A stretch of DNA of 53,130 nucleotides, the filler included, from Jimgerdemannia flammicorona (lineage: Eukaryota), in the NCBI GenBank assembly GCA_003990765.1. It is 3 parts of 3 records of this genome, joined end to end, with 100 filler letters (N's around TTAATTAATTAA, not from the genome) between each part and the next. Parts side by side here need not be neighbours in the genome. Positions count along the whole stretch, not along the records: positions 1 to 17,646 come from RBNJ01002461.1; 2 more parts are not named here. One strand, given 5' to 3'. Positions 4,870-47,097 of the stretch are shown here, in pieces (the stretch's first letter is position 1; each line of letters begins with the position of its first letter). The position numbers were made by a program, and so were the translations under genes. The notes under the pieces were generated by a model. The model had not been told where the DNA came from. It ran no database searches and was given only the letters and a program-made list of their open reading frames with translations.

Positions 4870-6620
4870 ATGACCCTGGGCATCGACTGCTGGTCCATTG
4901 ATATAGTCTATGGTAAGAACCACATTGAATGGTTACAACCCCCAACCCCACTCCAGACCAAACCCAGGTTCTCCTACAAGAAGAACATGTCAGTGATGGA
5001 GAAGGCTCTGGTAGATGCCACCATCACCAAGTTCCAGGACAAGGAGGCCATCTACCCTACCTAGGAGGGAGAGCTGCTCTTCTTCTCCAACATCTTCACA
5101 ATCCCCCAGGTCGACAAGAACCAAGCCTACCTCAATGTCCATTCGCTGAATGAGTTTATGAGGCAATTGTACTTCAAGATAGAAGGTATCCAGACTCTAT
5201 GCCATATGGTCTGGCCCAGTGACCACCTTGTCAAGATCGACATAAAGGATGCCTACCTACACATTCCCTTACATCTAGCCAATCAACAGTTCCTCACCTT
5301 TCAGTGGTGGAAGATCAACTGAAAATTCCATGCTATACCATTTGGCCTGTCATCTGCCCCGCACATCTGGACGAAGATGATGGCAGCAGTTCTGGAGCCT
5401 CTCCGAGCAAGGGGCATCCAGCTCACCTATTACATTGATAACATATGTCTCCTGGCCTCTACAAGAGATGAAGTGCTCCAACATGGGAGGATCATTCATG
5501 ACTATCTGGAGACATTGGGCTTTCTTCTACACCCAATGAAATGCATATGGGAACCAATGCAACAACAGATATTCCTGGGGTTCCTGGTCAATACCATCAA
5601 TATGGAACTCCACTTACTTATGGACAAGGTATGCAAGATCCGCAAAGAAACTGCATCTCTCCTCTGCCTGCCAACCGTGATCTCCATATACAAGGTGGCA
5701 TCACTGGTAGGTCTTTGCAACTCTATAGTATAGGTGATCTTTCCAGCCCAGTTTCGAGTATAGTCCCTCATTCAGAACATCCAGGACTCCCTCAATGCCA
5801 ACAACCACAACTGGAATGGTCTCATGTTCATCTCTCCAACATCTCAGGAGGACCTCCATTGGTGGTCCCTCAAGCTCTCCAGCTGGAATGGCTGGTCCCT
5901 ACTTACCGAATACCCCAAGGTCACAGTTGATACAGATGTTAGCAACCTAGGTTGGAGCTTCAAAATCACTGCTTTCATGTCCACCAGCCAAGCGATGCAG
6001 CAAGTGATAGACACTTGGACCTCTGTGGAATGATGCCACTCCATCAACTATCATGAACTCAAGACAGTCCTGTTCACACTCCAGATCAACAACTGCCATT
6101 GGGAGGGCTGTATGGTCCTTATTTGGACAGACAATATGACCATGAGGGCTTTCATCAATAAGCAAGGGGGCTTTCTCCTCCACCTGAACAAGATCACTGC
6201 CAAGATACACCACATCTGCATGATAAGGAGGATATGCCTCTTTGCCAAATACATTCCCAGGATCGAAAACATGTGTGCTGATTTTCTGAGCCACATCCGC
6301 CCCAGCCCAGACAAATGGCAACTCAATCCAATGATATTCTATCATCTCCTCCATTGGGGTCCCATATACCTGGACCTCTTCATGTCATTGACAACAACCC
6401 AGACCCCCCTCTTCTACAGCTGGTGGGCAGACCCTGAGGCCCTGGACACTGATGCTTTCCAACCTCAATGGCCAATCTCTGGTGCTTATGCAAACCCACC
6501 ATAGATTCTCCTCAACCACACACTGTGCAAGGTCAAGGAGAACAGATGTACTTACCTAGTCCTCATTATGCCATTTTGACAATAACAGAGCTGGTGGCCC
6601 AAACTCCTGAAAATGGCAAC
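4870..6620 (+). pseudogene. DIRS RT - RNase H - DNA N6-adenine-MTase-like ORF
   Basis: RT: KIDIKDAYLHIPL, FHAIPFGLSSAPHIWTK, YYIDN (YIDD-type). RNase H: VDTDVSNLGW, INYHELKTV, IWTDNMT, YIPRIENMCADFLS. MTase-like: DLFMS..FYSW..DAF..W..YANPP* ..LVLIMPF..SWWPKLL. In-frame stops present. Confidence 0.88.
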
Positions 6621-10843: not shown

Positions 10844-12353
10844 TGTGACAAACTGAGGCATACTACCCAAACTATACCTTAGTTGGATGAAGCAAATAAA
10901 TTAGCCAGATGATGTGAACACACAGCATAGTATAACAGACCAAAATATACTACCTGAATTATAACTTAGCCAGATGACGTGAACAATTAGCATACTTACT
11001 CAGCTTGATGTAACTTCCAGTGTATCATAGTAACTCATACCCGCTACACTTATAATTAGCCAAGACACCAGATCAGGATTGTTTACCTGTGTCCTGAGGA
11101 CACACTCATGTCTGGCAGACACACTCATGTCCTGGAGACACACTCATGTCCTGCGGACACACCTGTACCCAGAGGACACACCCAAATATTACCGAAGATA
11201 GCAAATCTATAATTAGCCACATAGTAACCAGATAGCAACCAACTTGTATAAATTACCCCAGAGGCGAGAGTGAATAAAACCTCAGTCCGAATTGAAGTGC
11301 AAATCAAAGAAGTCTCTAAAGATTGAGCAATTGGTCCCCTTATTCCCACTCTGGTCCACTTTCCGATACAAAGAAGAGTTTGTTACATTTTTGGTTCACT
11401 TGCCAGATAAGCCTGAAGATTTGCTGCCTAAGTTCAAGGAGAACTTTGCCACCTTTTGAAGAACCCGCCGCTTAAGGAATAAGCCGCGCTTTTGGTATGC
11501 TTGCCAGATAAGCCTGAAGAATCCCAGTTTCCTGCCAAGTTCAAGGAAGAACTTCGCCACATTCCCAGAAAGCCGCCTTGCCCAAGCCAGTTTCTGATAC
11601 AACTTCGCAGTGATCCATTCGTATAAATGAAGCCAGTCTTTGATGCAACTTTGCCAAGAGATCCTTTCCAAGCCGTCATCTTGTTTCCCAGAAGAACCCC
11701 ACCAATTCAGGAAGAATCTGTATCACCTGCCATTTTGAGTCATCCACTGTATTCCCAGTTGAAACCGATTCAGAAAGAGTCCGTGCCATCCGAGTTAATT
11801 CCCAGTTAAGCCACTGTTTTCAAGAAGTCTGCTGATTCAGGAAGAATCTGTGTCATCTGCCATCCCCAAGTTATTTGCATTCCCAGTGAGCCTAGGAAGA
11901 ATCCGCGCCATACAATTCCCAGTGAGCCAAATCGAGTTGTCCGCCAAATTATCAGAACATCCGCATAAGGAACCCATCGCGCTACACAGAGATCACCACA
12001 CCAAGATCGTCATGCAGAAACCACATAAGGAGAACAGCTAAATTGCCAGATCATCATGCAGAAACCAGAGATCGTCACTCAAGAAGGAAACTGCTCACGC
12101 TACACACAAAATTCTGCCATTCCCAGTTGACCCAAGAAGGAAAAGACGTACAAATCACCGCTACACCCAGAGAACTGTCCCAATAAGGAAATCTCTCACA
12201 GATATCCAGCTTTGACTATTATACTGCTAAACACCAAGGACCTCAGGAATCTTAGGACATTTTGTTGCTTTTTGACAAAGTAACTGAGGGCTCAAGCCAA
12301 ACTACATCAACTCCCAACCTTGTAATTTGCCTCCATTGAGCCGGCACATTACA
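10844..12353 (+). repeat. 5' LTR of copy A (about 1.5 kb)
   Basis: Starts TGTGACAAACT and ends ATTACA. Homologous ends at 23302/21946 (copy B) and 44376/45682 (copy D). TATAAAT near 11247, AATAAA near 11273, 20-bp tandem array at 11085-11180. Confidence 0.88.
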
Positions 12354-12355
12354 TC

Positions 12356-12372
12356 TGGGGGCTCAACTGGGA
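12356..12372 (+). promoter_or_regulatory. Primer binding site, tRNA-Pro type
   Basis: TGGGGGCTCAACTGGGA lies 2 nt after the LTR and resembles the retroviral Pro PBS TGGGGGCTCGTCCGGGA. The same sequence occurs in copy B (21927-21943, minus strand). Confidence 0.8.
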
Positions 12373-12386
12373 AGATTTTAAAATCG

Positions 12387-15300
12387 ATGTGACTTTTCAG
12401 CTCACAAGAACCCACAGTCAAACTGGATATATTTGATATAACACCAACCTCTGCCACTACAGAAGAACCAGTCATCACTAGCATTTGGACAGGAAGAGAA
12501 GTAATTACCTCAAGACTTGCCAACTACCCAGCATCAGAAGGATCCCAACCAGAAGCAGGAGGCAGTACAGCCCGAAATCCTCAACCAGATCAACCAGATC
12601 AACCAGACAATACAGACAGCCCTGCTGGAGATTTTGGAGAACTTGCACAAGAATTAGAAGACTTTATTACCTAGACCCAACACTTTACAGCCAGACACCC
12701 CACACCAGTCCCACCAATCTCACCAATAGAACCCCTACCACAACCTCTTGCAGAACCAGAAGTAGCTCCTACAAGAATACCTAGGCCTATTCCACCTCAC
12801 CCAAGGACCAGAACACCATCTTCAGAATACCCAAGCTCCCCCACCTCTAGTGACAGTTCAGAAAGCGAATCAGAATCAGAATCCGAACCTGAACCAGAAT
12901 CAGAAGAAAGTGACAATGAAATGGCCACCTCATTGCCAACCTTTGCAGGATACTCAGAGGAGGACCCCAGAGAATTCCTCGATGGAATTGAAGGAATTGC
13001 AGCCTTAGAAACCTCTCAGATGAAAGAAAAATAGCCATCTACAAAGCCCAGCTCAGAGAACCAGCCAGAGGAATTTTCCATCAAACAGCAAACAACTGAG
13101 ATTCAGAACTAGTAAGACAGATACAAGCAGCAATGTCTTATGAGCTAGAATATGAGGCCATGGTCCATTGGCTCATTGAAAAATATGCAGGAAATGAAAC
13201 CCACCACAAGGCTCAGGAATCTATCATGGGAATGAAGATGAATCTTGAAGAATCACCCAGAGCCTTCTTCACAAGAATCCAGAAGAGAATGCATTCTGCA
13301 GGGTTTAATGCCACCAACCAGGACATTATAGGCCCAATGATCTTCATGAATAGAAATCCCCCAAATATTGCCCAGTATGTCCACATCTTAGGCATCAGAA
13401 GGTCTGAAGAGCAAGTAGATGCAGCCCAAGGATTCTTTGATGTCAGGCAAGGAACTACCTGGAGTGACCATGACAAGAAGGAAGATAAAGAAGATATCCT
13501 GGTCAAAGCCCTGCAAGGACTCCTCCAAGGCCAAGAAAGATCTGAAGAAAGAAGGCCAGCCAAGGAAGGAAAGAAGGACAGAAGTGAAATCCAAGACCTC
13601 AGCTCCAAGTTAGATCGATTGATTGGGCAGATTGAAAAACTCACTATATGCAAAAATTGGAGCTACCAAGACAACAGAGGATACCCACCACAGAGGAGCC
13701 AAGGTTATCTGCCAAGGGATAACAGGAATTACCAGCAAGAAGAAAGAAGGTACCCTGCCTGAGACAGAGCCCAAGTCCAATGTTTTCACTGTAGACAATT
13801 CAGACACTATGCCACTGAATGTGACAACAAAAGAAGTGACCGAAGGGACTCAGAACCACCAAACCAAAGGAATGACACCCAGTACAAGAAGACTGAAGCC
13901 CATCCTGTTGAAGATTTTGAGGAAGCAAGCAACAGTGAAGACTACAGTGACCTAGACTTGTATCCTACCAAGGTTACTACCCGAAAGACAGTCTACCCAG
14001 CAGAAAAAAGAAAGAGTCCTGTGGGAAGACCATCCAGGAACATCAGCAGAAGAATCATTCAAGAAGAAGATGAAGAACATGAGGAGGAACAAGTTGAAAC
14101 ACCTCCCCAAACCCCCTTACCTTTTGTGCCTGAGACAAATGAGTTGCCACCAGAAGATGAAGAAATGGAACAAGAAGAATGGGAACCTGCTGCTCCAAAG
14201 TCTAAGAAGAAGTAAACCCTGAAGACCATACCTAGGGATATTTACAATGAAGCCTGGCAGAAGATTCAAGAAGCCAAGATGGAAGTCCCTCTCCTGCAGT
14301 TCTTGCAATTGACACCAGCTGGAGTCCGAAACAAATTGCTGAGAACCACCAGGTCTAGCACTGGCCGAGTTCCAATCCCACAGCAAGAACCAGCTTCCAT
14401 CCCAGTCCAAGCAGCTGAAAGACATGTCAGCACCTACTTACATGGAGATATTGGAGGACAAAAGGCGAAAATCCTCATAGATATAGGAGCAGCTGTCTGT
14501 GTCATTGTGAAACGATTCTTGGATACCCTCCAATGGCCCATTGATGGACCATCCAACCTCAGCATCATAGTAGCAGATGGAGCCCGAACTCAACCCCTTG
14601 GAGAAGTATGAAATATCACCATCTCCCTTGGACACATTCAGTTCTCCATCCCCAAAGCTGTTGTCACTGAAGCTGTCACCTATGACATGATTCTTGGCAC
14701 CAACTGGATGAAGGAAATGAATGCAGTTGTTGATATTGGCCAACAAGTACTCAAGTTTGACTACCGAGGCAAGAAGTATAGAGTTAAGGTAACCAGCTAT
14801 GAGCAATCAAAGAAGAAGAAGAAGGTCACAATTCAAGAAGAATATGCCAGCAGTGAGGAGTCTACTACAGAAGAGGAAGAAGAATCCGAAGATGGAAATG
14901 ATCCCAGACTCAATCCACGAATTAACCTGGTGGATGACAGACCAGAAGACAATGTGTGGGCCAAGAACACTATCCCTATCACCATTGGAGCCATTGCAGG
15001 AGAAGCCAAAGGATGCCCCACATGCCTCAAGAGACACAAGTGTTCCAAGCACTCCTCCAAGATCATGGGAAAAAGGAAATCGCCTGGTACAGCCTGCCCA
15101 GAATGCAGGAGAAAGAAGAAGAAATGCAGACATGTTCCAGAAACACCTGCGACCAAAGCTGCAGAAGTACAAGCAATTTGGGGTCAAGAATTATCTGAGG
15201 AAGAAGAAACTTCTGACCAGGAAGTTCCTGAACAAGAAGCACCTGATGAAGAAGAAGTCCCCAAACTCATCCCCTGGGATGACCCTCGCTGGACACCACC

Positions 15301-16921
15301 TGAAGACAATGACCCCTGGAATACAGAGGAAGGACCCAGTACTATCACCATTATCCCTAAGAAAGAAACCCACCAAGAGAAAGCTTTCCAGCTAGGAAGA
15401 TGTGCACATCAAATGGTCTTCCACTCTCTCCGAGACTACTGCTATCAGTGTCATCTGTTAGACCAACAAGAAAGACAGAGACCCCAGAGACCAGAACCCC
15501 CAACTACTCTTGAACAGTCTACCATCTTTCAGGAAGTCACCACAAGGTTACAAAGTCGATTTAGAGGACAAGGCTCCTTTACCCAGACAGAAATATACCC
15601 CTTGTCTACCCTTCCCCCAACCTATGATCAAGATGGGTACCAATTCCCAAGGCAACAAGAGATAAATAGCTGGGAATATCATTTCCGAGCAATGGGATAT
15701 TGCAACCATGGAAGACACCCTGACTGCCAAGACTGCAGACATCAGAAGATTCACCTCAGTCATGACGTTGCAGTGCACACCCTGAAGAAAGGAGATAACC
15801 GAGGCCAGATTCGAAAAAGTCAGATTCGAAAAAGCCAGACCAAGAAGCCTGGAAAAAGAATTCTCAAGATCTACGATCTAGGAGAAGACATCCTAGCTCT
15901 CATCAGACATATAACCCACCAAGGATGGGCAGAAGATGCCACCAACTTCATGGAAGCCCTTGACCCTACAGGAAGAAGGGGAATCAATTACCTCCAAGAC
16001 CCCTCTACTGGAGCCAGATGGCCACACCTCAACCTTAGAGCTTGGAGGCTTTCTGCTAGTGGAGCTTCAGCCTTAGGAAAGCCTGAACTCAGCAAGGACA
16101 TTGCCCAGTATGCCCTGCTGCACCCCAAGGCCAAACCCCCGACCAAAGCCCACCCAGAGGATGTAGGATATGATCTTCACAGCCTAGAGGATGAATCCAT
16201 CAAGCCTGGAAAAACCTTCATGGTCAGAACTGGATTAGCAATGCAGCCACCTCAAGAAGCCTATATTCAACTGACCTCAAGGTCTGGACTTGCCAGACAA
16301 GGGATAACTATAGAAGGAGGAACCATTGACCCTGGATATACAGGCGAAATCAAGGTTATCCTACACAACAGCAGTGCAGAATGGCACCAAATCATTAGAG
16401 GACAGAAGATTGCCCAAGCAGTCTTCATGAAGGTCAAGACCCCACAGTTACAAGAAGTCTCTGAACTAATGGAAGGAACAAGACAAGCCAAGGGATTTGG
16501 AAGTTCAGACAGAAAAGAAGTACACCTCCTTCAAGTCAACTGCCTCAAGAAGAATGTTCCCCAGCAAGTATACCGGCAACCAGTCAGACTACACAAGAAT
16601 CTCATCCTGGAGCCTGGAGAACAAACCACCTTCGAAATATTTGCACCACTCGACCCCAGAAACCTTTTCTTTGAACCCAAGGAAGATATCCCACACCTAG
16701 ACATAGAGGGACACACATTCCCTGACAAGATGAACCCAGTACACTCCCGAGCAACCAACCAAAGTTGGGAGACCATCATCCTGCCAAAAGGAACCATCAT
16801 AGGACATCTGGTGCCTTTTCTCAACCAAACTCATAGGGAAGTTTACGAACTAAACCTATCAGGAAATGGCAAAAGGTCCCAGAAGAAAGGAAAGGCCCCT
16901 CTGCCACCCAGGAGACAGTGA
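12387..16921 (+). pseudogene. ORF1 polyprotein: Gag (CCHC) - aspartic protease - Cys/His-rich insert - dUTPase - dUTPase-like domain
   Basis: ORF fragments starting at 13133, 13958, 14279 and 14687 share one frame and are separated only by point-mutation stops. A 1-nt deletion near 13008 relative to copy B explains the upstream frame. Motifs: MATSLPTFAGYSEEDPREFL, CFHCRQFRHYATEC (about 13781-13822), KILIDIGAAV (D-T/S-G site mutated), MILGTNWM. Confidence 0.88.
16115..16510 (+). CDS. dut: Trimeric-type dUTPase domain within ORF1
   Basis: All five motifs are present: (A>V)GYDL, SRSGLA, GTIDPGYTGEI, GQKIAQ, RQAKGFGSS. Confidence 0.95.
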
Positions 16922-17646
16922 AGCCTTCCACCAACATTGGAGAAGAATTGACACCTCAACAACAGCAACAACTAGTAGAACTTCTCAACAAATATCAAAA
17001 TATCTTTACCACCAACTATGGCAATCTGCCATACAACCCATCATATCACCACAGCATAAATACAGGAAGTGCAACACCCATCCAGCAGAAACCCTATAGA
17101 ATACCCCATTACTTGAAAACATTCGAAAAGGAGCACATCCAAGAACTCTTAGACAATGGAGTCATCCGACCCTCTACCAGCCCCTGGGCCAGCCCTATAC
17201 TTATTGTGCCAAAGAAAGGAGGATGGAGACTCTGCATGGATTATAGAAAACTCAACTCAGTCACTGAAAAGGACGCTAATCCTTTGCCCAGAATTGATGA
17301 CCTTTTGGACCAGTTACAAGATGCCAGATATTTCAGCAGTATGGACCTCTTCGCGGGATTCCATGAGATCTCCATGGACCCCAAGGACATTCAAAAGACA
17401 GCCTTCCTTGCTCTAGGAAAATTGTTTGAATACCTCCGAATGCCCTTTGGACTTTGCAATGCACCATCTACCTTCCAGAGGATGATGAATTCAGTCTATG
17501 CCCCCTTGATCCACCACTATCTGATTGTATACATGGATGATTCCAACATCTATTCAGCAAATTTTGAAGAACACCTGCACCACCTAGAGGAATTCTTCAA
17601 GCTCACCCGCAAGAATCACTTGAGACTGAATGCAAAGAAATACTAC
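16837..17646 (+). CDS. Gypsy reverse transcriptase (partial), in the -1 frame relative to ORF1
   Basis: PIQQKPYRIP, VIRPSTSPWASPILIVPKK, WRLCMDYRKLN, PLPRIDDLLD, YLRMPFGLCNAPSTFQR, YMDD. The frame is open from 16837 and is cut by the gap. Confidence 0.95.
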
Positions 17647-17746
17647 NNNNNNNNNNNNNNNNNNNNNNNNNNNNNNNNNNNNNNNNNNNNTTAATTAATT
17701 AANNNNNNNNNNNNNNNNNNNNNNNNNNNNNNNNNNNNNNNNNNNN
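17647..17746. other. Assembly gap with six-frame-stop linker
   Basis: N44 + TTAATTAATTAA + N44. Confidence 0.97.

Positions 17747-17809
<63 letters not shown>
17747..17809 (+). repeat. Poly(A) tract, probably the tail of a retroposon inserted into the start of copy B RT
   Basis: About 63 A at the contig start, abutting copy B at the QKPYR codons. Confidence 0.6.
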
Positions 17810-17812
<3 letters not shown>

Positions 17813-20800
17813 ATAGGGTTTCTGTCAGATGGGTGTTGCATTTCCTGTATTTATGTTGTGGTGGTATGATGGATTGTATGGTAGGTTTCCATAATTGGTG
17901 GTGAAGATATCTTGATATTTGTTAAGAAGTTCTACTAAATGTTGTTGTTGTTGGCATGTCAATTCTTCTCCAATGTTGGTGGAAGGCTTCACTATTTCCT
18001 GGGTCGCAGAGGGGCCTTTCCTTTCTTCTGGGACCTTTTGCTGTTTCCCAATAGGTTTAGTTCATAAACTTCCCTATGAGTTCAGTTAAGAAAAGGTACC
18101 AGGTGTCCTATGATGGTTCCTTTTAGCAAAATGATGGTTTCCCAACTTCGGTTGGTTGCTCAGGAGTGTACTGGGTTCATCTTGTCAGAGAGTGTGTGTC
18201 CCTCTATGTCCAGATGGAGAATATCTTCCTTGGGTTCAAAGAAAAGGTTTCTGGGATTGGGTGGTGCAAATATTTCAAAGGTTGTTTGTTTGCTGGGCTC
18301 TAGGATAAGATTCTTATGCAGCCTGACTGGTTGCTGGTACACTTGCTGGGGAACATTTCTCTTAAGGTAGTTGACTTGAAGGAGGTATACTTCCTTTCTG
18401 TCTGAACTTCCAAATCTCTTGGCTTGTCTTGTTCCTTCAGTTAGTTCAGAGACTTCTTGTAACTGTGGGGTCTTGACTTTCATGAAGACTGCTTGGGCAA
18501 TCTTCTGTCCTCTAATGATTCAGTGGCATTCTGCACTGCTGTTTTGTAAGATAACCTTGATTTCGCCTATATATCCTGGGTCAATGGTTCCTCCTTCCAT
18601 GGTTATTCCTTGTCTGGTGAGTCCAGACCTTGAGGTCAGTTGGATGTAAGCTCCTTGGGGTGGCTGCATGACTAATCTGGTTCTGATCATGAAGGTTTTT
18701 CCAGGCTTGATAGATTCATCCTCTAGGCTGTAAAGATCATACATATTCTACATCCTCTAGGTGGGCTTTGGTCAGAGGTTTGGCCTTGGGGTGCAGCAGG
18801 GCATACTGGGCAATATCCTTGCTAAGTTCAGGCTTTCCTAAGGCTGAAGCTCCACTAGCAGAGAGCCTCCAAGCTCTAAGGTTGAGGTGTAGCCATCTGG
18901 CTCCAGTAGAGTGATGGAGACAGTGTTTTTGGCCCATACATTGTCCTCTGGTCTATCATCCACTAGGTTAATTTGGGGGTTGAGTCTGGGATCATTTCCA
19001 TCTTCAGATTCTTCTTCCTCCTCTGTGGTAGACTCTTTACTGCTGGCATATTCTTCCTGAATAGTAACCTTCTTCTTCTTCTTTGATTGCTTATAGCTGG
19101 TCACCTTAACTCTATACTTCTTGCCTCAGTAATCAAACTTGAGTACTTGTTGGCCAATATCAACAACTGTATTCATTTCCTTCATCCAGTTGGTGCCAAG
19201 AATCATGTCATAGGTAGTGCTCCCAATGAATTGAATCAAATCAAATTTGGCCCAAACTCAATTTGATTCGATCAAATCAAGGGTCCAATTCGATTCGATT
19301 CGAACCAAATAAAAGGTCCAATTTGATTTGAAGTTCAATTTGATCCTTAATTTTCAAAATGTAATAACTCAACGAAATCTCATCCAAATTTAACATATTT
19401 TAGCTTGTTAGATTCACCGTAATAATGTGATTCTAACAGGCTAAAGTACATTTGATTTGGATAAGTTTATGCCGAGGTATTGCATTTTGAAAATTAGGGT
19501 TCGAATCAGACCCTCAATTCGATTCGACTTTTGATTCGATTCGAATTGATTCAAATTGAAAAATCCCCAATTCGATTTGACTTGTTTAACCCTCAATTCA
19601 ATTCAATTCGAATTGATTCGACTTGTTTGGGAGCACTAGTCATAGGTGACAGCTTCGGTGACAATAGCTTTGGAGATGGAGAACTGAATGTGTCCAATGG
19701 AGATAGTGATATTTCATACTTCTCCAAGGGGTTGAGTTCAGGCTCCATCTGCTACTATGATGCTGAGGTTGGATGGTCCATCAATGGGCCATTGGAGGGT
19801 GTCCAGGAACTATTTGGCAATGATACAGAGAGCTGCTCCTATGTCTATGAGGATCTTTGCCTTTTGTCCTCCAATGTCTCCATGTAGGTAGGTGCTGACA
19901 TGTCTTTCAGCTGCCTGGACAGGAATGGGAACTGGTTCTTGCCATGGTATTGGGACTCAGTCTATGCTAGACCTGGTGGTTCTCAACAATTTGTTTTGGA
20001 CTCCAGCTGGTATCAGTTGTGGGAACTGCAGGAGGGGGACTTCCATCTTGGCCTCTTGGATCTTCTGCCAGATTTCATTGTAGATATATCTAGGCATGGT
20101 CTTTGGGGTGTACTTTTTCTTGGGCTTTGGGGCAACAGGTTCCCATTCTTCTTATTCCATTTCTTCATCCTCTGGTGGCAGCTCATTTGTCTTAGGGGCA
20201 AAAGGTGAGGGGGTTCAGGGAGGTGTTTCTACTTGTTCTTCTTCATGTTCTTCATCTTCCCCTTGGATGATTCTTCTGCTAATATTCCTGGATGGTCTTC
20301 CTACAGGTCTCTTTCTCTTCTCTGCTGGATAGACTGTTTTCATGGTAACCTTGGTAGGGTACAAGTCCAGGTCACTATAGTCTTCACTATTGCTTGCTTC
20401 CTCGAAATCTTCCACAGGATGGGCTTCAGTCTTCTTGTACTGAGTGTCATTCCTTCAGTTTGGTGGTTCTGAGTCCCTTTGGTCACTTCTTTTGTTGTTA
20501 TATTCAGTGGCATAGTGTCTGAATTGTCCACAGTGGAAGCATTGGACTTGGGCTCTGTCTCAGACAGAGTACCTTCTATCTTCTTGCTGGTAATTCTTAT
20601 TATCTCTTGGTAGATAACCTTGGCTCCTCTGTGGTGGATATCCTTTATAGCTCTGATTTTTGCATGTAGTGAGTTTTTTAATCTGTCTAACCAATCAGTC
20701 CAACTTAGAGCTAAGGTCTCATATTTCACTTCTGTCCTTTCTTTCTTCCTTAGCTGGCCTTCTTTTTTTGAATCTTTCTTATCCTTGAAGGAGTCCTTGT

Positions 20801-26099: not shown

Positions 26100-26182
26100 A
26101 CATCTCTTTCCAGTACCACTCAGGTTACACAACCTTTGGAAGGCACTTTTGACATCATTTTCAGCAACAAGAGACTAACAAC

Positions 26183-28207
26183 ATGGCAACCAACAGGCAG
26201 CCTGGGGGGTGTACTGGGCAGGGCGGCCCAAGCGCTTTCGACTGGCAGCAGGTAGGGAGGGGTCCAGGACTGGCAGGAGGTATGAGGGGCCTGCTGGCGG
26301 GTGGACATGGAAGGGGTGGAGGAGGAGGTGGAGGATCAGGATCTGGGAGGGCAAGCTTTGTGGAGATAGTGAAGGGGAGACAGCAGGCATCGGGGCTGGA
26401 GGGCTGGCTGAGGAAGGGCAAGGAGACCGAGAAGGCGATGGTGCCGGGGGGGGCGGTCCTTGGAAGGGGGGGAGATGGGGCTGTAGGAGTAGTGGCTGGG
26501 GCAGGTGTGACTGCTGATGGTGTTTGGACTGTCAATCGGGAAAAAAATCCAGATGTGATGGCTTATGGTGAGGCTGAGCAGCTGAGGCTTAGGAGACAAG
26601 GGGACTTGGCAGATGGAGTAACGGGTCTGGCAGTGGCCCCGTTACTCAAGAAATTGATTTCGGCATTGGTGGTCACACTATGCTTCCGGGGCCTGGTGGT
26701 GATGGCAAAAATGGTGCTGGGGCTCATCGCTAAGCAGGTGGCAGGTGCAGCATCTGTGAAGTTTTTGAAGGGACTGGAAGGAGTGGAGGTGGGTTTTGAG
26801 GAGGTAGCACCACTGGAGGAGGCGCTGAAGGTTGGATTGGTGGTTGGGGAGGTATGTGTTCTGATGGTGTGGTGCCTGAAGTGGGACCCCAGGGTGGTCC
26901 AACTGCTAGTGAAGGGAGTGCCGATGGTGACAGCAATGGAGACAAGGAAGAGAGTTGAGGATTTCATGGCGGAATATGGCGAGGTGGTAGATATCAGGTT
27001 CAGGGTCTGGGAAGGGACCTTGCTCAGGACTGGTGACGTGGATGTGAGGATTAGGCTGGCTGGGAAGAAAGCCACTGGGAAGGCAAGGGATTGGCCTTCG
27101 GCTATGGTCTGGGGAGCGATCCTGTGTAAGGTGACAAGGGTGAAGGGGAGTGAGGAGGAGGAGGAGGATTTACTGGAAGTGCTCGAGGAGCTGGGGGGTG
27201 CTGTGGAGAGGCAAGCAAAGGCTTGGGAGGCTTTTGAAGAGACGAGACACTTGGAGGTGGTGGATGGAAAGCAGATTCGAGTGACTAAGGAGCAGTGGGA
27301 AAGGGCTCAGGGGCGTAAGAGGCAGAAGGAGTTGCTGGCCAAGATGGGTAGCGGACCACTGGGGGAGGTAAGCAAGGTGAAGGGCACAGGGGGAACTGGA
27401 GCGAGTGTCTGGGCCGGCAAGGGGGAGGGGAAGGACAAGAAGGAAGTGGGGGAGGACAAGAAGAGGGCTGAGAAGGACCTGAATGCAGATGGTACACTGG
27501 AGGTGTGGGAGGAGGACTGGGTGGGCTCCCCTACCCCTACCCCTCTCATCAGGTGTGGCCCGGCTTCCTGGAATAGGGTGGTGGAAGATGTGCCAATGTG
27601 AGGGGCCCAGAGGGTGCAATTTGGAGTTCCAGAGGTGGCATATGGGGGACAGGTGGAGGCAGATGGCGAGGAGGAACTGGTGGATGTCCCGGAAGTATGG
27701 GATGAGTCTGCAAGTGCTGGAGCTAACACCACAATGTTGGATGGAGGGAGGCCAGCGACTCCAGGGGGGAAAGAGGTGGGGAACTTGCTTTGGATGTTCC
27801 AGATGATGAATAATCAGGTGGCAGAAGAGTTGGGGGAAGTGGACTTGCGAGTGATGAGTGATGAGCATTGGGCAGGAATACTGCAGGGGGATGGCGTAAT
27901 GAAGGTATTGAAGGTGGAAATTCTTGCGGTGTACCTGGAGGAGGAGGGATATGAGGTGGATAAGGAGAGGGAGGAGGAGATGGCGGTTGTTGCTGGAGAA
28001 AGGGCTGAATACTACTGGAACAAGTGACATGGACTACAGCTCTGGCAGGAAGCGTATATCGAATACCGAGAGGAGTTTGAGGAGAAGGCCGATGGCGAGA
28101 TGAATGAACTGCTGGCTGGATTGGAGGCTCAGAGGGCTGAAGAGGAGGAGGTGGCTGCGGAACATAATTTGGACAGGGCGCAGGAGGAGATGAGCATGGA
28201 GCAGTAG
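26183..28207 (+). pseudogene. LINE ORF1 (Gly-rich N-terminus, RRM-like core, acidic/coiled-coil C-terminus)
   Basis: A 472-aa open stretch with LVKGVP...EYGEVVDIRF..EGTLLRTGDVDVRIRL, typical of L1/Tx1 ORF1, continuing in frame through stops at 27601 and 28027. Confidence 0.75.
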
Positions 28208-28240
28208 AGGAAGATTGACATCATCACATATATCATCAAT

Positions 28241-31200
28241 ATGAACAGTACAACCAACATTTTCTCTTTGAATGTGAATGGGTTATGGGGCGCTTCTCGA
28301 CATAGGAACATTTTTACTTGGATGAAGGGATTGGAGGCCGATCTCTTCCTCTTACAGGATGTCCGGTGCGAAGATGACTCTGATAGGTTAGAATGGACGA
28401 AGGAATGGGGAGGTGTGGCGATTTGGAAGGGCAAGGTTGGGATTTTGGTTAGGAAAGGCAGAGGGGAGATACAGAATGTGCAGTGCTGGGGGGAGAGACT
28501 GGTCTGGGGAGAGTGGATTTGGGCAGGCTGGGAGCCAGTTACAGTTGGTTCCTGCTACTGCCCTGCGGTACGGGGTGAGAGGGTTGATTGGGTGAAAGGC
28601 TTATAGGAGAGTGGATTACTTGCGGAGGCTGGGGTGGATGTGCTAGGGGGAGATTTCAATATGGTTAGGGATATACTGCTGGATAGATCAGATGGAGGAT
28701 GAGGTGCTGAGAGCAGGAGTGGAGGGATAGTGGCATGGGAGGATGTAGAGAGGTTAAGTGTGCTATTGGATGCTGGAAGGGAGTGCTGGGGGAGTAGGAG
28801 GGTCTATACACATTGGGCAGGGGGTCTGGGGACTCGAATCGACTGGATTTTGACAGCCTGCTGCTGGGGACTAGATGTTTGGAAATCATTGGAGGTGGAA
28901 TGGTGTCTATGGTCGGATCACTGGGGGCTTTTGGGACAGGGGTGCTTTGGGGGAAGTGGGGATGGGCCTGGACATTGGTGCCTCAATTCCTCTTTGTTAG
29001 ATGATAAGACCTGGTGGGATGAGTGGGCTAAAGACATTCAGCTGAAGGTGGAGAATTGGAGGCAGGAAGGGGCTGCAGTTGGGACTCGGTGGATGAGGAT
29101 GAAGGAAATGGCCAGGATTTACTGAAAGGAGGCTGGCAAGGAGGCAGGGAAATGGCGAAAACAAAGAGTGTGCTGGGCCTCTGCTAGATTGACAAGGCTC
29201 CTGGAGGAGTGGGCAAGGCTGGTGATGTTGGAGGGGGAAGAAGATTGGAGATTAATGAGGGCGAAAATGGAGGTTGGGGAACTTCAACAGGTGCTGCAGG
29301 AGGAGGAAGAGGCAAGGGTCCAGAGTTTGGCAGCATGGCTTCATTGGCAGGATCTGGAGGAAGGAGAGAGGCCTTCCAAGCTTCTTACAAGGGCCCTTTG
29401 GGTGAGGCGGGTCCAGCAATGGTGGGAAGGGGTATTGGACTCTGAGGGTGTACTGGTGCATGGTGTACAGGACATTTTTGGATCACTGAAGGAGAGATGG
29501 AGTGGATTGTGGAGTGAGGAGAAGGGTGGGGCAGATGCCGCTACAATTGAACGAACATTGGAGGATTGGCACCCACCACAAGTTGAAGGGCTAGGGGACC
29601 TAGTGATGCCTGTACAGGAGGATGAGATCCACTAGGTTCTTGCCACGACAATGTCCGGTACAGCACCTGGGGAGGATGGGCTGCCCTGGGACTTTTGGAA
29701 GCGAATGGTTGAAGTCCCAGGGGTGATGGGAGAGATGACAGTGTTGTGTGACCTTATTCTACAGACAGGAAGATGGGTGGGGGAGCAGGACCTTGGGCTG
29801 GTGATACTGCTCTACAAAAACAAAGGAAGGCAGGAGGATTGGAAGAACTGGCAGCCAATAATGCTGCTAGATATGGACAGAAAGTTGGTAACTAAGGTGG
29901 TGGTGGTGAAACTACAGAAGGTGGCCCAGCAAGTTGTGGGTGTTGAGCAGAGGGGATTTGTAGGTGGTCGGCTCATCAGGGATGGCACTGCCTGGGTGCA
30001 TGGCATCATCGAAGGGGTGAGGACATGTGGACTGGATGGGTGTCTAGTTTTCTTGGACCAGGAGAAGGCTTATGACCAGGTGCAGAGAGTCTGGCTGGAG
30101 AAAGTCTTGGATAGAATGGGGGTACTGCATCAATTCCAGTCAATGATGGTCAGCCTACTGGAAGGGAGTAGGGCTGCACTCATGTGTAATGGACATAGAG
30201 AGGTAGTATTCCCCTTGGGAAGGGGAGTGCCCCAGGGGGATCCATTGTCCCCCATTTTGTATGCTCTTTCTCTGGAACCACTTATGGACCGAATTAGGCA
30301 GAGGATAGTGGGGCTCTCTGTCTTTGGCATAGGATGGAAGGTTGGGGCCTTTACTGATGACATGGTGGTGGGCTTGGGTTTGATTGCTGATGTTGAGAAG
30401 CTCAAGAGGACTGTGGAGTGGTATGAGGAGCATTCTGGAGCTAAGCTGAATTGGCATAAGTGTGAGACGATGGTACTTGGTAATGGCCTGGTGGGAGGGG
30501 AGGTTATAGGAACAATTGTCCCCACCGGTGAAGCAGTGCAGTACTTAGGTATCTACTTGTCAGTCTATGGGTCAGTTCTGCCCAAGCTTTGGTGAGAGCA
30601 GAGGATTGGAATCTGGGAGGAGGCTCTGCGAAGTTGGGGGGGAAGACATTTTTCTCTGACAGGGCAGGTCTCGATTTTGAATGTCTACTGGCTGCCAAAG
30701 TTGTGGTACCTGGCATATCATCTGGACTTCCCAGCCTGGGTAGTGAAGAGATTGATGAAGTCAGCGAAGGGATGGATTTGGGCTGGCAGGCAGAGTCAGA
30801 TTAGTTGGGAGACCTTGTCCCTACCAGTGGCAAGAGGTGGTCTTGGGCTGGTTGACTTCCCAAAATGGTTACACTGCTTGAGAGCATAGTGGCTGAAGAG
30901 GGTGGTGGAGTTGAGAGGAGGTGGATGGGTTCCTCTGTTACAGAAGTTATGGGAGAGGTGGGCATCACCGAGGGGCTCAACTGGTGATCTCCTCTCCTTG
31001 GTTGGGCTTCAGAACACTGCCCAACTACAATATAAAGGATTTTGGTGGGGAATTGCAGAAGGAGTGCACCGCATTGGTATTCACTGGTAGGGGAATGAAG
31101 GTGAGGAGGATTGGGACCCAGCAATGTGGAGATGGGACTGTATACTGCTGAGTGGTGCTCCTTTAGTTGAGTTCGACATTGGTGATGGAATGGAATGCCA

Positions 31201-31897
31201 AAGGGGACCAGGCCAGGATCTGTGGCCTAGCAGTTGGCAAGGAGTTGAAATTGGCAAAGAGTGGAACTGGCATAGTGTTTGGACCTGGAGCACTGCAGTG
31301 AGAGTATGGCTGCCACCAAAGTACTGGGTGGTCTGGTGGTGCATGCTGTGGAGGAACATTATGCTCAATTTTTGCTCAGGGCACCTGGTTGTAGGGGGTT
31401 GCTTCGACTGTGAGGAGTGCCATAATGTAGGGCAGGAGGGGGGATACGTACAGATGCCAGAACATTGGCTAGGAGAGTGTGAGGTGTTGGGGGATTTTTG
31501 GCAGACAATTGGAGATCGCTTAGGGGTATAGGGTAGGAGTGATGGAGTATGGGGGCAATGGGAGGACTTGAGGGTTAGATTGGTAGGGGGGATAGGGAAG
31601 GAGTGGCTTACTTTAGGTTAGGCTTTGGCAATTTGGGTGGGGCTGGCCAGTCATTGGCTATTTGTTTTTGAGGATGGGAGGAGGCAGAGCTTGGGGGACT
31701 GGTTGCTGTGATGGCATAGACTTATGGAAGATACCTTAACAGGCTGGTGGCTGGGTTGGGGGATGCAGGGTGGTCGGAGGCGCTGCTTGGTAGAGAAAAT
31801 CTGTGGGCAGAGTGGGGGGAGAGTGGAGATAGTTGGTGAAAGGGTGATTTTTATTCATGAGGAAGTAGGGAGGGGCCCCCCTGTAGGGATTGGATAG
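28241..31897 (+). pseudogene. LINE ORF2: APE endonuclease + reverse transcriptase + C-terminal Cys/His motif
   Basis: APE: SLNVNGL, FLLQDV, GGDFN, RIDWIL, WSDH. RT: APGEDGLP..FWK, WQPIMLLDMDRKL, EQRGFVGGRLI, LDQEKAYDQV, GVPQGDPLSPILY, AFTDD. C-terminus: CFDC..PEHWLGEC. Stops and frameshifts present. Confidence 0.93.
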
Positions 31898-32007: not shown

Positions 32008-34325
32008 CAGTATATGAAGCCATGATCCACTTGCTTATTGAGAGGTATGCAGGAAATGAGATCTACCATAAAGCTCAAGAATCTATTATAGAAATGAAGA
32101 TGAATCTTAGAGAATCACTCAGAGCATTCTTTACAAAAATTCAAAAAAGAATACATATAGCTGGGTTTAATGCTACCAATCAAGACATCATAGGTTCAAT
32201 GATCTTCATGAATGAGTTTCCCCTGAACATCACTCAGTATATCCACACCCTAGGCATCAGAAGGTCTGAAGAGTAAGTAGATACAGCCTAAGGATTTTTT
32301 GATATCAGATAAAAAACTACCTGGAGTGACTATAATAAAAAGAATGATAAAGAAGACATTCTGGTCAAAGCTCTGCAAGAACTTCTTCAAGAACAGAAAA
32401 GATCTGAAGAGAGAAAACCAGCCAAAGAACAGAAATAAAAATCAAGATCTCAGTTTCAAGTTGGACTAATTGGTCAGGCAGATTGAAAAACTCACCATAT
32501 GTGAAAATCAAAGCTACTCACAAAACAACAGAGGATATATACCACAAAGGAACCAAGGATACCCACCCAGAGATAATAGGAGCTACTAGCAAGAGAAAAG
32601 AAGATACTCTACCTGAGACAGAGCTCAAGTTCAATGCTTTTACTGTGGACAATTCAGATACTATATTACTGAATATGATAACAAAAGAAATAACTGAAGA
32701 GACTCAGAACTACCAAATCGAAGAAATGAAATCCAGTACAAGAAGACTGAAGTCCATCCTGTCAAGACTTTGAAGAAGAAAGCAACAGTAAAGACTACAG
32801 AGACCTAGACTTATACTCAGTCAAAGTTATCACCAAAAATATAGTTTATCTAGCAGAAAAAAGGAAGAGACTCATAGGAAGACCATTCAGAAATACCAGC
32901 AGAAGAATTTAAGAAAAAGATGAAGAACTTGAAGAAGAGTAAGTAGAAATACCTCTCTGGTCTTCCTCACCTTTTGTTTCCAAAACAAATAAACTACCTT
33001 TAGCGAATGAAGAAATAGAGCAAGAAGAACAAGAGCCTACTGCCCCAAAGCTCAAGAAGAAGTATACTCTGAAGACTATATCCAGAGACATCTATAATGA
33101 AGTCTGGTAAAAGATTCAAGAAGTCAAGATAGAAGTCTCTCTTCTGCAGTTTCTGCAACTGATATCTGCTGGAGTTCGAAACAAACTGTTGAGAACTACT
33201 AGGTCTAGTACTGGCTGAGTCCCAATTCCACAGCAAGAATTAGCTCCCACCTCTATTCAAGCTATAGAGAGATATATCAGCACTTATCTATATGGAGATA
33301 TTGGAGGACAAAAGGCAAAAATCCTCATTGATACAGAAGCAGCTGTTTGTATTATTGCCAAACAATTTCTGGACACCCTCCAATGGCCTATTAATGAACT
33401 ATCCAATCTTAGCATTATAGTATAGCAGAGCCCAAACTCAACCTCTTGGCAAAGTATGAAACATCACTATCTCTCTAGGACACATTCAGTTATCTATTCC
33501 AAAAGCTATTGTTACTAAGACTATCACCTATGATATGATCCTTAGCACCAACTGAATGAAGGAAATAAATACAGTTGTTGATATCAGTCAATAAGTACTC
33601 AAGTTCAATTATTGAGGCAAAAAGTATAGAGTTAAGTTAACTAGCTATGAGTAATTAAATAAGAAGAAGAAGATCACTATTTAGGAAGAATATGTCAGCA
33701 GTGAAGAGTCTACCACAGAAGAGGAAGAGGAATCTGAAGATAGAAATAATCCTATGCTTAATCCCTGAATCAATCTAGTAGATGATAGACTAGAAGATAA
33801 TGTATGAGCTAGGAATACTATCTCTATCACAATTGGAGCTATTGCAGAACAGATTAAAGAGTGCCCCACTTATCTCAAAAGACACAAGTTCTCCAAGCAC
33901 TCCTCAAACATTGGAATAAGAAATTCACCTAGTATAGCCTACTCTAAGTACAGAAAAAGAAAGAAGAAATGCAGACATATTCCAAAGACACCTATAGCCA
34001 AAGCTACAGAAGTATAAGTGATTTGGGGTCAAGAATTATCTGAGGAAGAAGAAACCCCTAAGTAAGAGATTCCTGAACAAGAAGTATCTGAGGAGGAAGA
34101 GCCCCCTGAATTCATTTCCTGAGATGACTCTCACTGGATACAACTAGAAGATAATGACTTCTGAAATATCAAAAAAGGACCCAGTATAATTCCCATTGTT
34201 CCCAAGCAAGAAATACACCAGAAAAGAGCCTTTTAGCTAGAAAGATATCTACATCAAATAGTCTTCCACTCTTCCTGAGACTACTGCTATTAATATTAGC
34301 TACTTGCCTAATAAGAAAGATATAG
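32007..34325 (+). mobile_element. Ty3/Gypsy copy C fragment (mid-Gag to Cys/His-rich insert), heavily mutated
   Basis: Colinear with copy A about 13150-15480 (HLLIERYAGNEIYHKAQES; KILIDTEAAV; EEESEDRNNP). Confidence 0.9.
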
Positions 34326-35389: not shown

Positions 35390-35489
35390 NNNNNNNNNNN
35401 NNNNNNNNNNNNNNNNNNNNNNNNNNNNNNNNNTTAATTAATTAANNNNNNNNNNNNNNNNNNNNNNNNNNNNNNNNNNNNNNNNNNNN
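35390..35489. other. Assembly gap with six-frame-stop linker
   Basis: N44 + TTAATTAATTAA (35434-35445) + N44. Confidence 0.97.
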
Positions 35490-44375: not shown

Positions 44376-46920
44376 TGTGATAAGCAAATAGTATAATATA
44401 ACCAGATAATATGAACTCTCAGTATAGCATAGTTATCTATGACCACTATACTTATAATTAGCCAAGAATACTAAATCAGGGTTATTTATCTGTATCCTAC
44501 AGATACACTTATATCCTGCAGACACACTCATATCCTGTAGACACACTCATGTCCTGCAGACACACTTATATTCTGAGGATACATCTAAACATTACTAGAG
44601 ATAGTAAATCTATAATTATCTAGATAGTAACCAGATAGCAACTATAATATATAAAATACCCCAGAGATAAGAGTGAATAAACCTCAGTTCAAATTGAAGT
44701 ACAAACCAAAGAAGTCTCTAAAGATTGAGCATTGGTCTCCTTATTTCTACTCTAGTCTACTTTCCAATATAAAGTCTTGGTTTGCTTACCAGATAAGCCT
44801 GAAGATTTGCTATCAAAGTTCAAGCTGCCACTTAAGGAATAAGCTGCTAATTCCAAGTTACCCATATTCTCAGAGAGCCTTAAGGAATCTTGCTATAAGC
44901 CAGTCTACTAGATGTAACTTCACAGTAATTCATTCATACAAATGAAGTCTATCTTTGATGCAACTTTGCTAAGAAGAGAACCTTTTCCAGTAAGCTGCCA
45001 ATTTAGAAAGAATCTGCTACTAGTTATTATTCTCAAAAGAACTAATTCAGGAAGAATCTGTATCATCCAAGTTATCTGAATATCCACCACCTGAGTTATT
45101 TATCTATTCTCAGTGAGCCCAGTCCAAGAAGAACTCATACCATCTAAGTATTATTCCCAGTGAGCTGAAGCAGAAAAATCTATACCATCCTTTATTTCCA
45201 GCTACTGATTCAGAAGAATCCATACCAAATCAAGTTATGTGTCAAAATTATTTCACTAGAGATTATATACTTTTGGAAATATGACTGTCATATATAAAGA
45301 GATCACTATACTATACAGAGATCATTATACTATATAAAGATTACTTACTACTTAGAAGAAAAACCATTAAATTGCTAGACTATCTCACATAAGGAATCCA
45401 TTTATGCTACATAGAGATTACTGTACTATATAGAGATTATCATACTATATCAAATCATTTACCATATACAAAATCACCATTATACCCAAGAACTCATCCC
45501 AATAAGAAAATCACCAGAATTGCTTACAGATATCTAGCTTTAACTATTATACTACTAAATACCAAGGACCTCAGGATTTATAGAATATTTTGTTGCTTTT
45601 TGACAAAGTAACTAAAGGCTTAAGCCAAACTACATCCATCCTCAACCTTGTAATTTGTCTCTATTGAGCCAGGCATATTACATTTAGAGACTTAACTAGG
45701 AAGATTTTAAATTGATATAACTTTTTAGCTTACAAGAATCCACAGTTAAATTGGATATATTTGATATAATATCAATCTCTGCCACTATAAGAGAACTAGT
45801 TATTATTAGCATTTAGATAGAAAGAGAAGTAATTACCTCAAAACTTGCTAATTATACAGTATCAGAAGAATCCTAACCAGAACCAGAAGCTAGTATAACC
45901 TGAAATCCCCAATCAGATCAATCAGACAACACAGGTAGCCCTGCTGGAAATTTTGAAGAACTTGTCTAAGAACTAGAAGATCTCATTACATAAGTCTGAA
46001 ATCCTGCAGCCAGACATCCCAGAGAGGTTCCACTAGTCTCACCCATTGAACCTTTACAACTAGCTCTTACAGAATTAAAAGTAGCTCCTTTAAGAATATC
46101 TAGGTTCATTTTACTTTATCTAAGGTCCAGAACACTATCCTCAAGATACCCAAGTATCTCCATTTCTAGTAATAGTTCAGAAAACAAATCAGAGTCAGAA
46201 TCTGAATCAGAATCTGGACCAGAACTAGAATTAGAAGAAAGTGATAACAAAATAGCCACCTTATTGCCAACCTTTACAGAATATCCAGAGGAAGATCCTA
46301 GAGAATTCCTTGATGGAATTGAGAGAATTGCAGCTTTATGGAATCTCTCAGATGAAAGAAAAATCACCATCTACAAGACCTAGCTCAGAGAACCAGCCAG
46401 AGAAATTTTCCACCAAATAGCAAGAGACCCACACTCAGAACTAGTAGTATAAATACAAGCAGCAGTATTTTATGAGCTGAAATATGAAGCCATAGTCTGC
46501 TGACTCATTAAAAAATATATAGAAAATGAAACCCACCACAAAGCTCAAGAATCTAAAAGAGAATATATGCAGCTGAGTTTAATGTCACTAACCAAGACAT
46601 CATAGGTCCAATGACTTTTATGAATGAGATTTCCCCAAACATTACCCAGTATGTCTGCACTCTAGATATCAGAAGGTCTGAAGAGCAAGTAGATATAGCT
46701 TAAAAATTCTTTAATATCAGACAAGAAACTACCTAGAGTGACCATGATAAAAAGGATGATAAAGAAGACATTCTTGTCAAAGCCCTATAAGGACTCCTTC
46801 AAGGATAAGAAAGATCTGAAGAAAGAAGGCTAGCCAAAGAAGGAAAGAAGGACAGGAGTGAAATCCAAGACCTTAGTTCTAAGTTGGACCAATTGGTTAG
46901 ATAGATTGAAAAACTCACTA
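44376..46920 (+). mobile_element. Ty3/Gypsy copy D (LTR 44376-45682, decayed PBS, Gag N-terminal half)
   Basis: Colinear with copy A 10844-13648. Carries the 20-bp array at 44490-44580; the PBS has mutated to TAGAGACTTAACTAGGA. Confidence 0.9.
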
Positions 46921-47097
46921 TAATATTTTAGCATAGTTTATTTCTTTTCTTTATCTTTCTTCAATATTCTACAACCTTCTGGTACTTTCCAAATGCTTAG
47001 AAATCCTTTCTTGGTACTGAGCATTCTCTAGTACTTATTTAGTTAGTCACTGATTGTCCTGGAAACTTGTAGAACTTTATTTGTCATCATTTGTCAT
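46919..47097 (+). repeat. Short fragment resembling the chromovirus LTR, interrupted by the hAT element
   Basis: atattctac..gcttagaaa..tttcttggtac..tagttagtca..ggaa..tagaa follows the reverse complement of 42480-42700. Confidence 0.45.

Follow-up and report, generated by a model that had tools for sequence, protein, structure and literature searches.

A -1 frame boundary after dUTPase in a decayed Ty3/Gypsy-type retroelement family of Jimgerdemannia flammicorona, with a candidate G_GGA_AAC slip site

Several described retroelements resemble in part a Gypsy-type long terminal repeat (LTR) retroelement that is present in decayed copies in a 53,130-nt stretch of DNA from Jimgerdemannia flammicorona (GenBank assembly GCA_003990765.1), hereafter the window. 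PEG10 and the sushi-ichi-type Ty3/Gypsy ancestors are Metaviridae-derived and share with it the heptamer G_GGA_AAC, its phase, and the placement of the enzymatic part in the -1 product (PMC2800197, PMC5009743). This heptamer is reported to be among the shiftiest for mammalian ribosomes (PMC5009743) and is the frameshift site of the Gypsy-derived gene PEG10 (PMC2800197); likewise, GGGAAAC is used by simian retrovirus 1 (SRV-1) (PMC2995055). In the alpharetroviruses (Rous sarcoma virus and avian sarcoma/leukosis virus, RSV/ASLV), protease (PR) shares the gag frame and hence the Gag level of synthesis, and one -1 shift leads to reverse transcriptase (RT) and integrase (IN) (PMC12789967). The betaretroviruses (mouse mammary tumor virus, MMTV; Mason-Pfizer monkey virus, MPMV; and SRV-1) have dUTPase and protease upstream of the shift into pol, with GGGAAAC in SRV-1 (PMC12789967, PMC2995055). 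Within the Metaviridae, the order PR-dUTPase-RT is described for the bdelloid elements Juno, Vesta, and TelKA and for PosPlaTy3-5 of Postia placenta (PMC5408684, PMC2864245).

The element in the window combines these arrangements differently. Unlike PEG10, in which a defined pseudoknot drives a shift placed between gag and protease, it has both protease and dUTPase upstream of the proposed shift, and no structure there stands out. Alpharetroviruses belong to another virus family and are without dUTPase and without the 450-aa Cys-rich insert seen here; the likeness of the element to them is one of plan, and neither of descent nor of Retroviridae membership. Its closest Pol relatives found are Gypsy Pol proteins. 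In betaretroviruses, the gag/pro/pol arrangement involves two -1 shifts, with dUTPase before protease and both behind the first shift, hence sub-stoichiometric to Gag (PMC12789967), whereas in the window element protease precedes dUTPase and both are in the gag frame. In the rotifer elements, PR-dUTPase-RT is described within pol, behind a gag-pol frameshift (PMC5408684, PMC2864245), and the available text of the same two sources describes no dUTPase/RT shift for either the rotifer or the Postia elements. A literature search, over sources available in part, found no description of a Gypsy element with its shift after dUTPase, an absence that is not proof. Dictyostelium Skipper, considered as a parallel with a separate pro ORF, was rejected, given that PMC5006619 reports two open reading frames (ORFs) with protease in ORF2.

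The proposed explanation is that two dead copies, A and B, represent a Ty3/Gypsy-type LTR retroelement family whose first ORF (ORF1) encodes Gag with a CCHC knuckle, protease, and, past a Cys-rich insert, dUTPase with a tail of 137 aa, and whose pol, beginning just before RT, lies in the -1 frame and overlaps ORF1 by 74-85 nt. An ORF1-Pol fusion would be produced by -1 programmed ribosomal frameshifting inside this overlap, such that the full capsid level would apply to Gag, protease, and dUTPase alike, and RT (with ribonuclease H, RH, and IN, both outside the window) would reach a small fraction of it. The most likely slip site would be an in-phase G_GGA_AAC heptamer, which copy B preserves and copy A has in degraded form. 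That ORF1 and pol are separated by a real boundary needing recoding is held with high confidence, and -1 slippage is the probable route across it; the assignment of the slip site to the G_GGA_AAC heptamer is close to an even call, leaning slightly in its favor, and the explanation as a whole is moderately favored. The features involved, in window coordinates, are the following.

13100..14611, + strand: gag and the start of protease in copy A, in the ORF1 frame (gag-asp_proteas, E 0.005), with three in-frame stops
14612..16129, + strand: remainder of protease (ILGTNWMKE...VVDIGQQVLKF) and the Cys-rich insert of about 450 aa in copy A, in the ORF1 frame
16130..16507, + strand: dUTPase domain, ORF1 residues 507-632 (PF00692, E 2e-27)
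16508..16918, + strand: family-specific ORF1 tail of 137 aa, after dUTPase
16834..16836, + strand: upstream TAG that closes the -1 (RT) frame of copy A
16837..17646, + strand: -1-frame ORF with the pol N-terminus and RT (RVT_1, E 7e-31, residues 124-268), running off the contig
16845..16847, + strand: -1-frame codon, CGA in A and TGA in B; TGA in 13/13 contigs covering 16846
16861..16867, + strand: candidate slippery heptamer position in copy A, reading A_GGA_AAT, which is not X_XXY_YYZ
16875..16908, + strand: proposed hairpin in copy A, with arms 16875-16883 and 16900-16908
16919..16921, + strand: ORF1 stop TGA in copy A, shared in position by the relatives P0061, P0063, and P0064
17810..22402, - strand: copy B, on the second contig, with 85-91% identity to A
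17989..17994, - strand: ORF1 end in copy B, a TAG (17994-17992) followed directly by the family TGA (17991-17989)
18002..18035, - strand: hairpin in copy B, GGTCCCAGA (18035-18027) / TCTGCGACC (18010-18002), 7 nt after the heptamer
18043..18049, - strand: intact in-phase G_GGA_AAC heptamer in copy B

Copy A (+ strand) spans about 11915-17646, where the first contig ends, and its ORF1 frame, followed from 13100 to the stop at 16919-16921 (stop-to-stop coordinates 14612-16921), carries the gag knuckle, protease, Cys-rich insert, dUTPase, and tail. The knuckle, of the form CX2CX4HX4C (CFHCRQFRHYATEC), is found in the copy A ORF 13763, the protease motif LIDIGAA at about 14444-14590, and the homologous parts of the relative P0001 match zf-CCHC and RVP_2. 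The PF00692 match scores 96 bits (cut-off 22), covers positions 3-128 of the 129 in the profile, and thereby predicts a trimeric dUTPase. With a CCHC gag knuckle, a retropepsin, and a Gypsy-type RT, the element falls within Ty3/Gypsy (Metaviridae). The ORF1 of copy A is interrupted by in-frame stops at 13760-13762, 14213-14215, and 14609-14611. P0001, in turn, is an unbroken 1179-aa ORF containing zf-CCHC, retropepsin (RVP_2, 21.0 bits; cut-off, 20.3), the same Cys-rich insert, dUTPase (1.3e-32), and the tail, and copy A 14612-16129 is collinear with its residues ~470-890. The continuity of P0001 through gag, protease, and dUTPase argues that the living state is one ORF without recoding between gag and protease, and that recoding sits after dUTPase.

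An earlier, preliminary description of this DNA had placed the recoding site there, and in this respect it is borne out by P0001. Its further proposal that Gag, protease, insert, and dUTPase form one product agrees with the intact ORF of P0001 and with the shared frame in copy A, although that frame is no longer intact in copy A, being cut by three stops. The alpharetrovirus-like layout that it suggested holds as a plan only: protease is in frame with gag, and a single shift leads into pol, as in a Gag-Pro/Pol arrangement.

The Cys-rich insert (14760-16130; ~640-800 in P0001) contains several conserved Cys/His clusters, namely CPTC...C..H, C.QC, and GYC.HG...C..C in copy A and RC.HG...C.AC and GYCECG...C.YC in P0001, and matched no Pfam family; it may be a zinc-binding module. 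The ORF1 tail likewise matched no Pfam family and had no significant similarity to the fungal-type dUTPase-PR-RT protein P0004.

In copy A, the RT frame opens 85 nt before the ORF1 stop, one base back. At 16846, C>T was found in all aligned contigs that cover it (X1, 271/271; X4, 6.61/6.61; X5, 8.89/8.89; X7, 4.86/4.86); with TGA at 16845-16847 across the family, the -1 frame opens at 16848, which leaves a usable overlap of 74 nt (16848-16921). No ATG precedes the RT core in the pol frame, where Met first occurs at residue 134, within that core, which argues that pol needs recoding. Similarity to Gypsy Pol proteins begins at about residue 30 of the -1 ORF (~16924), directly past the ORF1 stop; together with the lack of an early Met, this makes a shift within 16848-16918 the simplest route to pol. 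The downstream ORF thus has the attributes of a -1 frameshift product, being in the -1 frame, overlapping ORF1, and lacking a start of its own. The closest Pol relatives carry PR-RT-RH-IN Pfam sets, and one of them is named 'Pol polyprotein from transposon opus'; RH and IN of the window element would lie past the point where the copy A contig ends inside RT (17646).

Copies A and B are gap-free over 16179-17100, and the -1 offset is identical in both. A search for the tail among 1.84 billion cluster representatives returned 3 proteins, and a word-indexed tail search of 5.8 billion proteins returned 3 matches; with the addition of a dUTPase-protein search, five distinct tail-bearing relatives were obtained. 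All five end ORF1 at the stop of copy A or 21 residues beyond it, and none contains RT. Three of them (P0061, P0063, and P0064; 81-84% identity, open frames of 226-404 aa) end exactly at the copy A stop (...KGKAPLR[PL]RR[KR]), while P0001 (40% identity over dUTPase and tail) and P0062 (35%) end 21 residues later. In other families, the fusion of dUTPase to RT is the rule: among 29 other dUTPase-bearing proteins, the same ORF holds RVT_1 in 7 and the copia-type RVT_2 in 11.

Logan contigs from four runs (three soil metagenomes and 'organism A') were also aligned on 16500-17300 at a likeness of at least 80%. Across the 304 contig pieces, the variants listed (40 of 165 rows) include a single indel, at 16626 in one contig, and none at the junction; the pieces are short, and a row missing from this listing does not prove identity. 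Judged from these relatives and contigs, an ORF1/pol boundary after dUTPase with a -1 offset is a family feature. The preliminary description had quoted the letters of both copies, placed RT in the -1 frame, and argued that an identical offset in A and B was not a copy-specific indel. A direct reading of the two copies confirmed the quoted letters and the frame, and the gap-free alignment, the absence of a listed junction indel, and the ORF1 end shared by 5/5 relatives without RT agree with the conserved offset.

A metagenome contig scan with P0001 gave one unrelated dUTPase locus (L001), and genome and viral contig scans with dUTPase-core patterns gave bacterial, archaeal, and phage dUTPase loci only (L002-L161). 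Viral contigs scanned with the tail alone gave no match, and comparison with a protein atlas yielded generic RT and dUTPase clusters only. The stretch or near copies of it were found mainly in soil and root metagenomes (14 studies), plus 'organism A', and the host is probably a widespread eukaryote living in soil or in association with roots.

At the candidate slip site, the ORF1-frame letters are TCA GGA AAT GGC in copy A (16859-16870) and TTG GGA AAC AGC in copy B (18051-18040, minus strand). The G_GGA_AAC of copy B is the sole X_XXY_YYZ heptamer in any phase in the scanned junction (A 16780-16960; B 18125-17960), and it lies 13 nt past the family -1-frame stop and 52 nt ahead of the ORF1 stop. 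On either side of the heptamer, A and B differ by a complementary TG/CA pair, the usual mark of CpG decay; there are 8 such pairs in 922 nt. At other TG/CA pairs (16826/7, 17013/4, and 17083/4), the contigs mostly have C in the first place and G in the second, which fits CpG decay in both copies. The Gly-Asn encoded at the heptamer is invariant in 5/5 close sequences (A, B, P0061, P0063, and P0064), while nowhere in the tail is variation greater than at the residues next to it (S/L/S/Q/L before and G/S/D/G/L after). Each of the preceding residues S, L, and Q can be encoded by a codon that ends in G. In ORF1, in-phase heptamers occur at a base rate of 2 in 1274 codons, which corresponds to a chance of ~4% in the overlap.

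A number of observations weigh against the heptamer as the site of the shift. It is intact at the DNA level in only one of three readable copies, namely B: the X4 contig 16749-16904 differs from copy A only at 16826, 16827, and 16846 and thus has the degraded heptamer. The 40 listed variant rows include neither 16861 nor 16867, and contigs end at 16855-16865. The distant relatives are without Gly-Asn at the aligned place, where P0001 has L-G-K and P0062 has I-K-K-A, codons for which could, on the residues alone, spell other slippery heptamers. Dinucleotide shuffles of the overlap, which is purine-rich, contain an in-phase heptamer in 16% (strict) to 35% (any X_XXY_YYZ) of cases. A second GGGAAAC is present in copy B at 18143-18137 on the minus strand, out of phase, where copy A reads GGGAGAC. 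Finally, the 0-frame KGKAPL downstream of the heptamer is kept in 6/7 sequences (P0062 has KGKG-L), indicating that the 0 frame is still selected past the proposed slip site, which fits a slip there and, equally, one further downstream. The reading of an ancestral in-phase heptamer put forward in the preliminary description is therefore upheld in part: the heptamer is intact in B and the TG/CA pairs fit CpG decay, but it is degraded in A and in the X4 contig. Conservation at the protein level is likewise divided, with Gly-Asn kept in the close sequences and absent from P0001 and P0062.

These same observations bear on the strongest alternative, in which the -1 shift would take place at another, non-canonical or lineage-specific site in 16848-16918 and the GGGAAAC of copy B would be there by chance. 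The frequency of heptamers in shuffles, the single intact copy, the loss of Gly-Asn in P0001 and P0062, and the continued conservation of KGKAPL are all compatible with it, as is the ORF1 of P0001 and P0062, which is 21 residues longer and changes the usable overlap. Such a site, however, would have to do without any other X_XXY_YYZ, since none occurs in A 16780-16960 or its counterpart in B, whatever the phase. The only relaxed in-phase match in the overlap downstream of the candidate site is A_GGA_AAG (16888), which pairs poorly after a -1 slip by the established tandem-slippage rules (PMC5009743), and the fixation of Gly-Asn in the five close sequences, while flanking codons vary freely, also points away from a chance occurrence. 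A shift at a different site is on balance unlikely.

No convincing stimulator emerged downstream of the candidate heptamer. Copy B takes the GGTCCCAGA...TCTGCGACC hairpin as its fold of minimum energy (-9.9 kcal/mol, z -0.06). This fold does not stand out from chance: 96/200 dinucleotide shuffles fold at least as well as the copy B hairpin, and the fold of copy A differs (-10.5 kcal/mol, z +1.05) and is equalled or beaten by 175/200 shuffles. A crude score for an H-type pseudoknot was equalled in 187/500 (B) and 238/500 (A) shuffles, in an enumeration of perfect stems only, by which bulged stems can be missed. Over a 100-nt stretch, the folding z-scores are -0.31 for A and -0.77 for B. Position 16905, in the 3' arm, is C in A and G in B and in most aligned contigs (C>G: X1, 105.3/111.5; X5, 4.99/4.99), so that copy B shows the family version of the hairpin, which is still weak. 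A stimulatory structure downstream of the slip site is unsupported; of the hairpin that had been proposed 7 nt downstream, what survives is the predicted fold in B, at a stability on the level of shuffled sequence.

A second class of explanation would have pol expressed without slippage, whether from a spliced mRNA supplying an AUG (as in foamy viruses), by non-AUG internal initiation, or by reinitiation. The lack of a structure that stands out is in keeping with this, and GTG at 16918-16920, the earliest candidate for an alternative start in the -1 frame, falls right at the ORF1 stop; the pol N-terminus also has a weak match, below the cut-off, to the spumavirus protease family (E 0.0011). 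Against it stand the short overlap and the stop that closes the -1 frame 13 nt before the canonical in-phase heptamer of B, together with the absence of any AUG in the pol frame ahead of the RT core. Moreover, a -1 overlap with a heptamer is the usual plan in animal LTR elements, pol being in -1 in 28/51 of those surveyed (PMC5009743). The contig pieces, from DNA or unknown library types, contain no joints, and such libraries are not informative on splicing. Expression of pol without slippage is thus considered quite improbable. Very improbable, and close to refuted, is the idea that the offset goes back to a 1-nt indel that inactivated a single ancestor of A and B and was passed on to both. 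Both copies are heavily decayed (stops, a 4-nt insertion, a deletion), and two copies alone are compatible with shared ancestry, but the open ORF1 frames of five relatives (226-1179 aa) all terminate in the same place, three at the identical codon, without RT, and the variants listed for the 304 contig pieces include no junction indel.

With -1 slippage after dUTPase as the preferred reading, the comparison with P0001 can be carried past the ORF1 stop. Seven residues past KGKAPL, the 0-frame NLPPTLE of P0001 matches, in 6/7 residues, the SLPPTLE that the window encodes in the 0 frame beyond the stop, and in the -1 frame the window DNA of SLPPTLE encodes the PSTNIG of Pol. This match suggests that the same phase relation may hold in P0001, a relative only 40% identical. 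Separately, P0001 and P0062 share a 0-frame C-terminal extension (...E[RH]SSHWRK...), the HWRK of which resembles HWRR in the third frame of the window (16922-16951), encoded by the same DNA as LPPTLE; a short nucleotide motif (around CATTGGAGAAG), either duplicated or strongly conserved, may therefore lie just past the ORF1/pol overlap.

A broader reading is offered tentatively, at somewhat less than an even chance: a Metaviridae lineage, hosted by a eukaryote well represented in soil and root metagenomes, may have converged on the alpha/betaretroviral plan, with Gag, protease, a Cys-rich module, and dUTPase at capsid level and RT (with RH and IN) reached only via a -1 slip at a PEG10/SRV-1-type G_GGA_AAC after dUTPase. 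The downstream stretch, kept at the nucleotide level between elements 40% identical in protein (0-frame 'LPPTLE'), could under this proposal be part of an unrecognised stimulator. The layout is a variant of well-known recoding plans and is seen here only in dead copies. If the plan is true, each particle would be loaded with as much protease and dUTPase as capsid subunits, and only polymerase and integrase would be rationed, which for protease would be the alpharetroviral solution and for dUTPase would go beyond the betaretroviral one. The family would then provide a data point on how often retroelements relocate the recoding site relative to protease, and another on the dose of dUTPase that a retroelement needs. 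The junction of copy B is a short natural sequence that is directly testable in a frameshift reporter.

The window itself consists of three contigs strung together with N44-TTAATTAATTAA-N44 linkers at 17647-17746 and 35390-35489, and the tail-to-tail placement of A and B as an inverted pair is thus an artefact of concatenation. Copy B is without the equivalent of A 14993-16003, has a 4-nt insertion within dUTPase and extra stops, and its RT breaks off at a poly-T run at the contig start. About 64 T at 17747-17810 directly abut the RT of copy B (after ...KPYR); this run may mark a truncation with a homopolymer or be an artefact of the assembly end. Two older copies (32009-34320 and 45471-46922, both on the + strand; ~78% identity to A) belong to the same or a sister family and contain only the gag-to-insert part, and are for that reason uninformative on the ORF1/pol junction. 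Repeats upstream of copy A (11012-11457) recur near copies B and D, and repeats at 44414-44824, upstream of the copy at 45471-46922, match 11012-11438; the latter pair is probably the LTR.

Over the 922 positions compared, A and B differ at 95, of which 83 are transitions, and the window as a whole has a G+C content of 40.2% and an observed/expected CpG ratio of 0.20. CpG depletion together with this excess of transitions would imply heavy cytosine methylation of host repeats. Among 36 other ORFs of the window, a Pfam search recognised just two more RT fragments and no host gene. An RT fragment is located at 5323-5730. A non-LTR element resembling long interspersed nuclear elements (LINEs) is present at 26153-31617 on the + strand, with open frames of 482 and 319 aa (RVT_1, 1.7e-27), and is far less decayed than the Gypsy copies.

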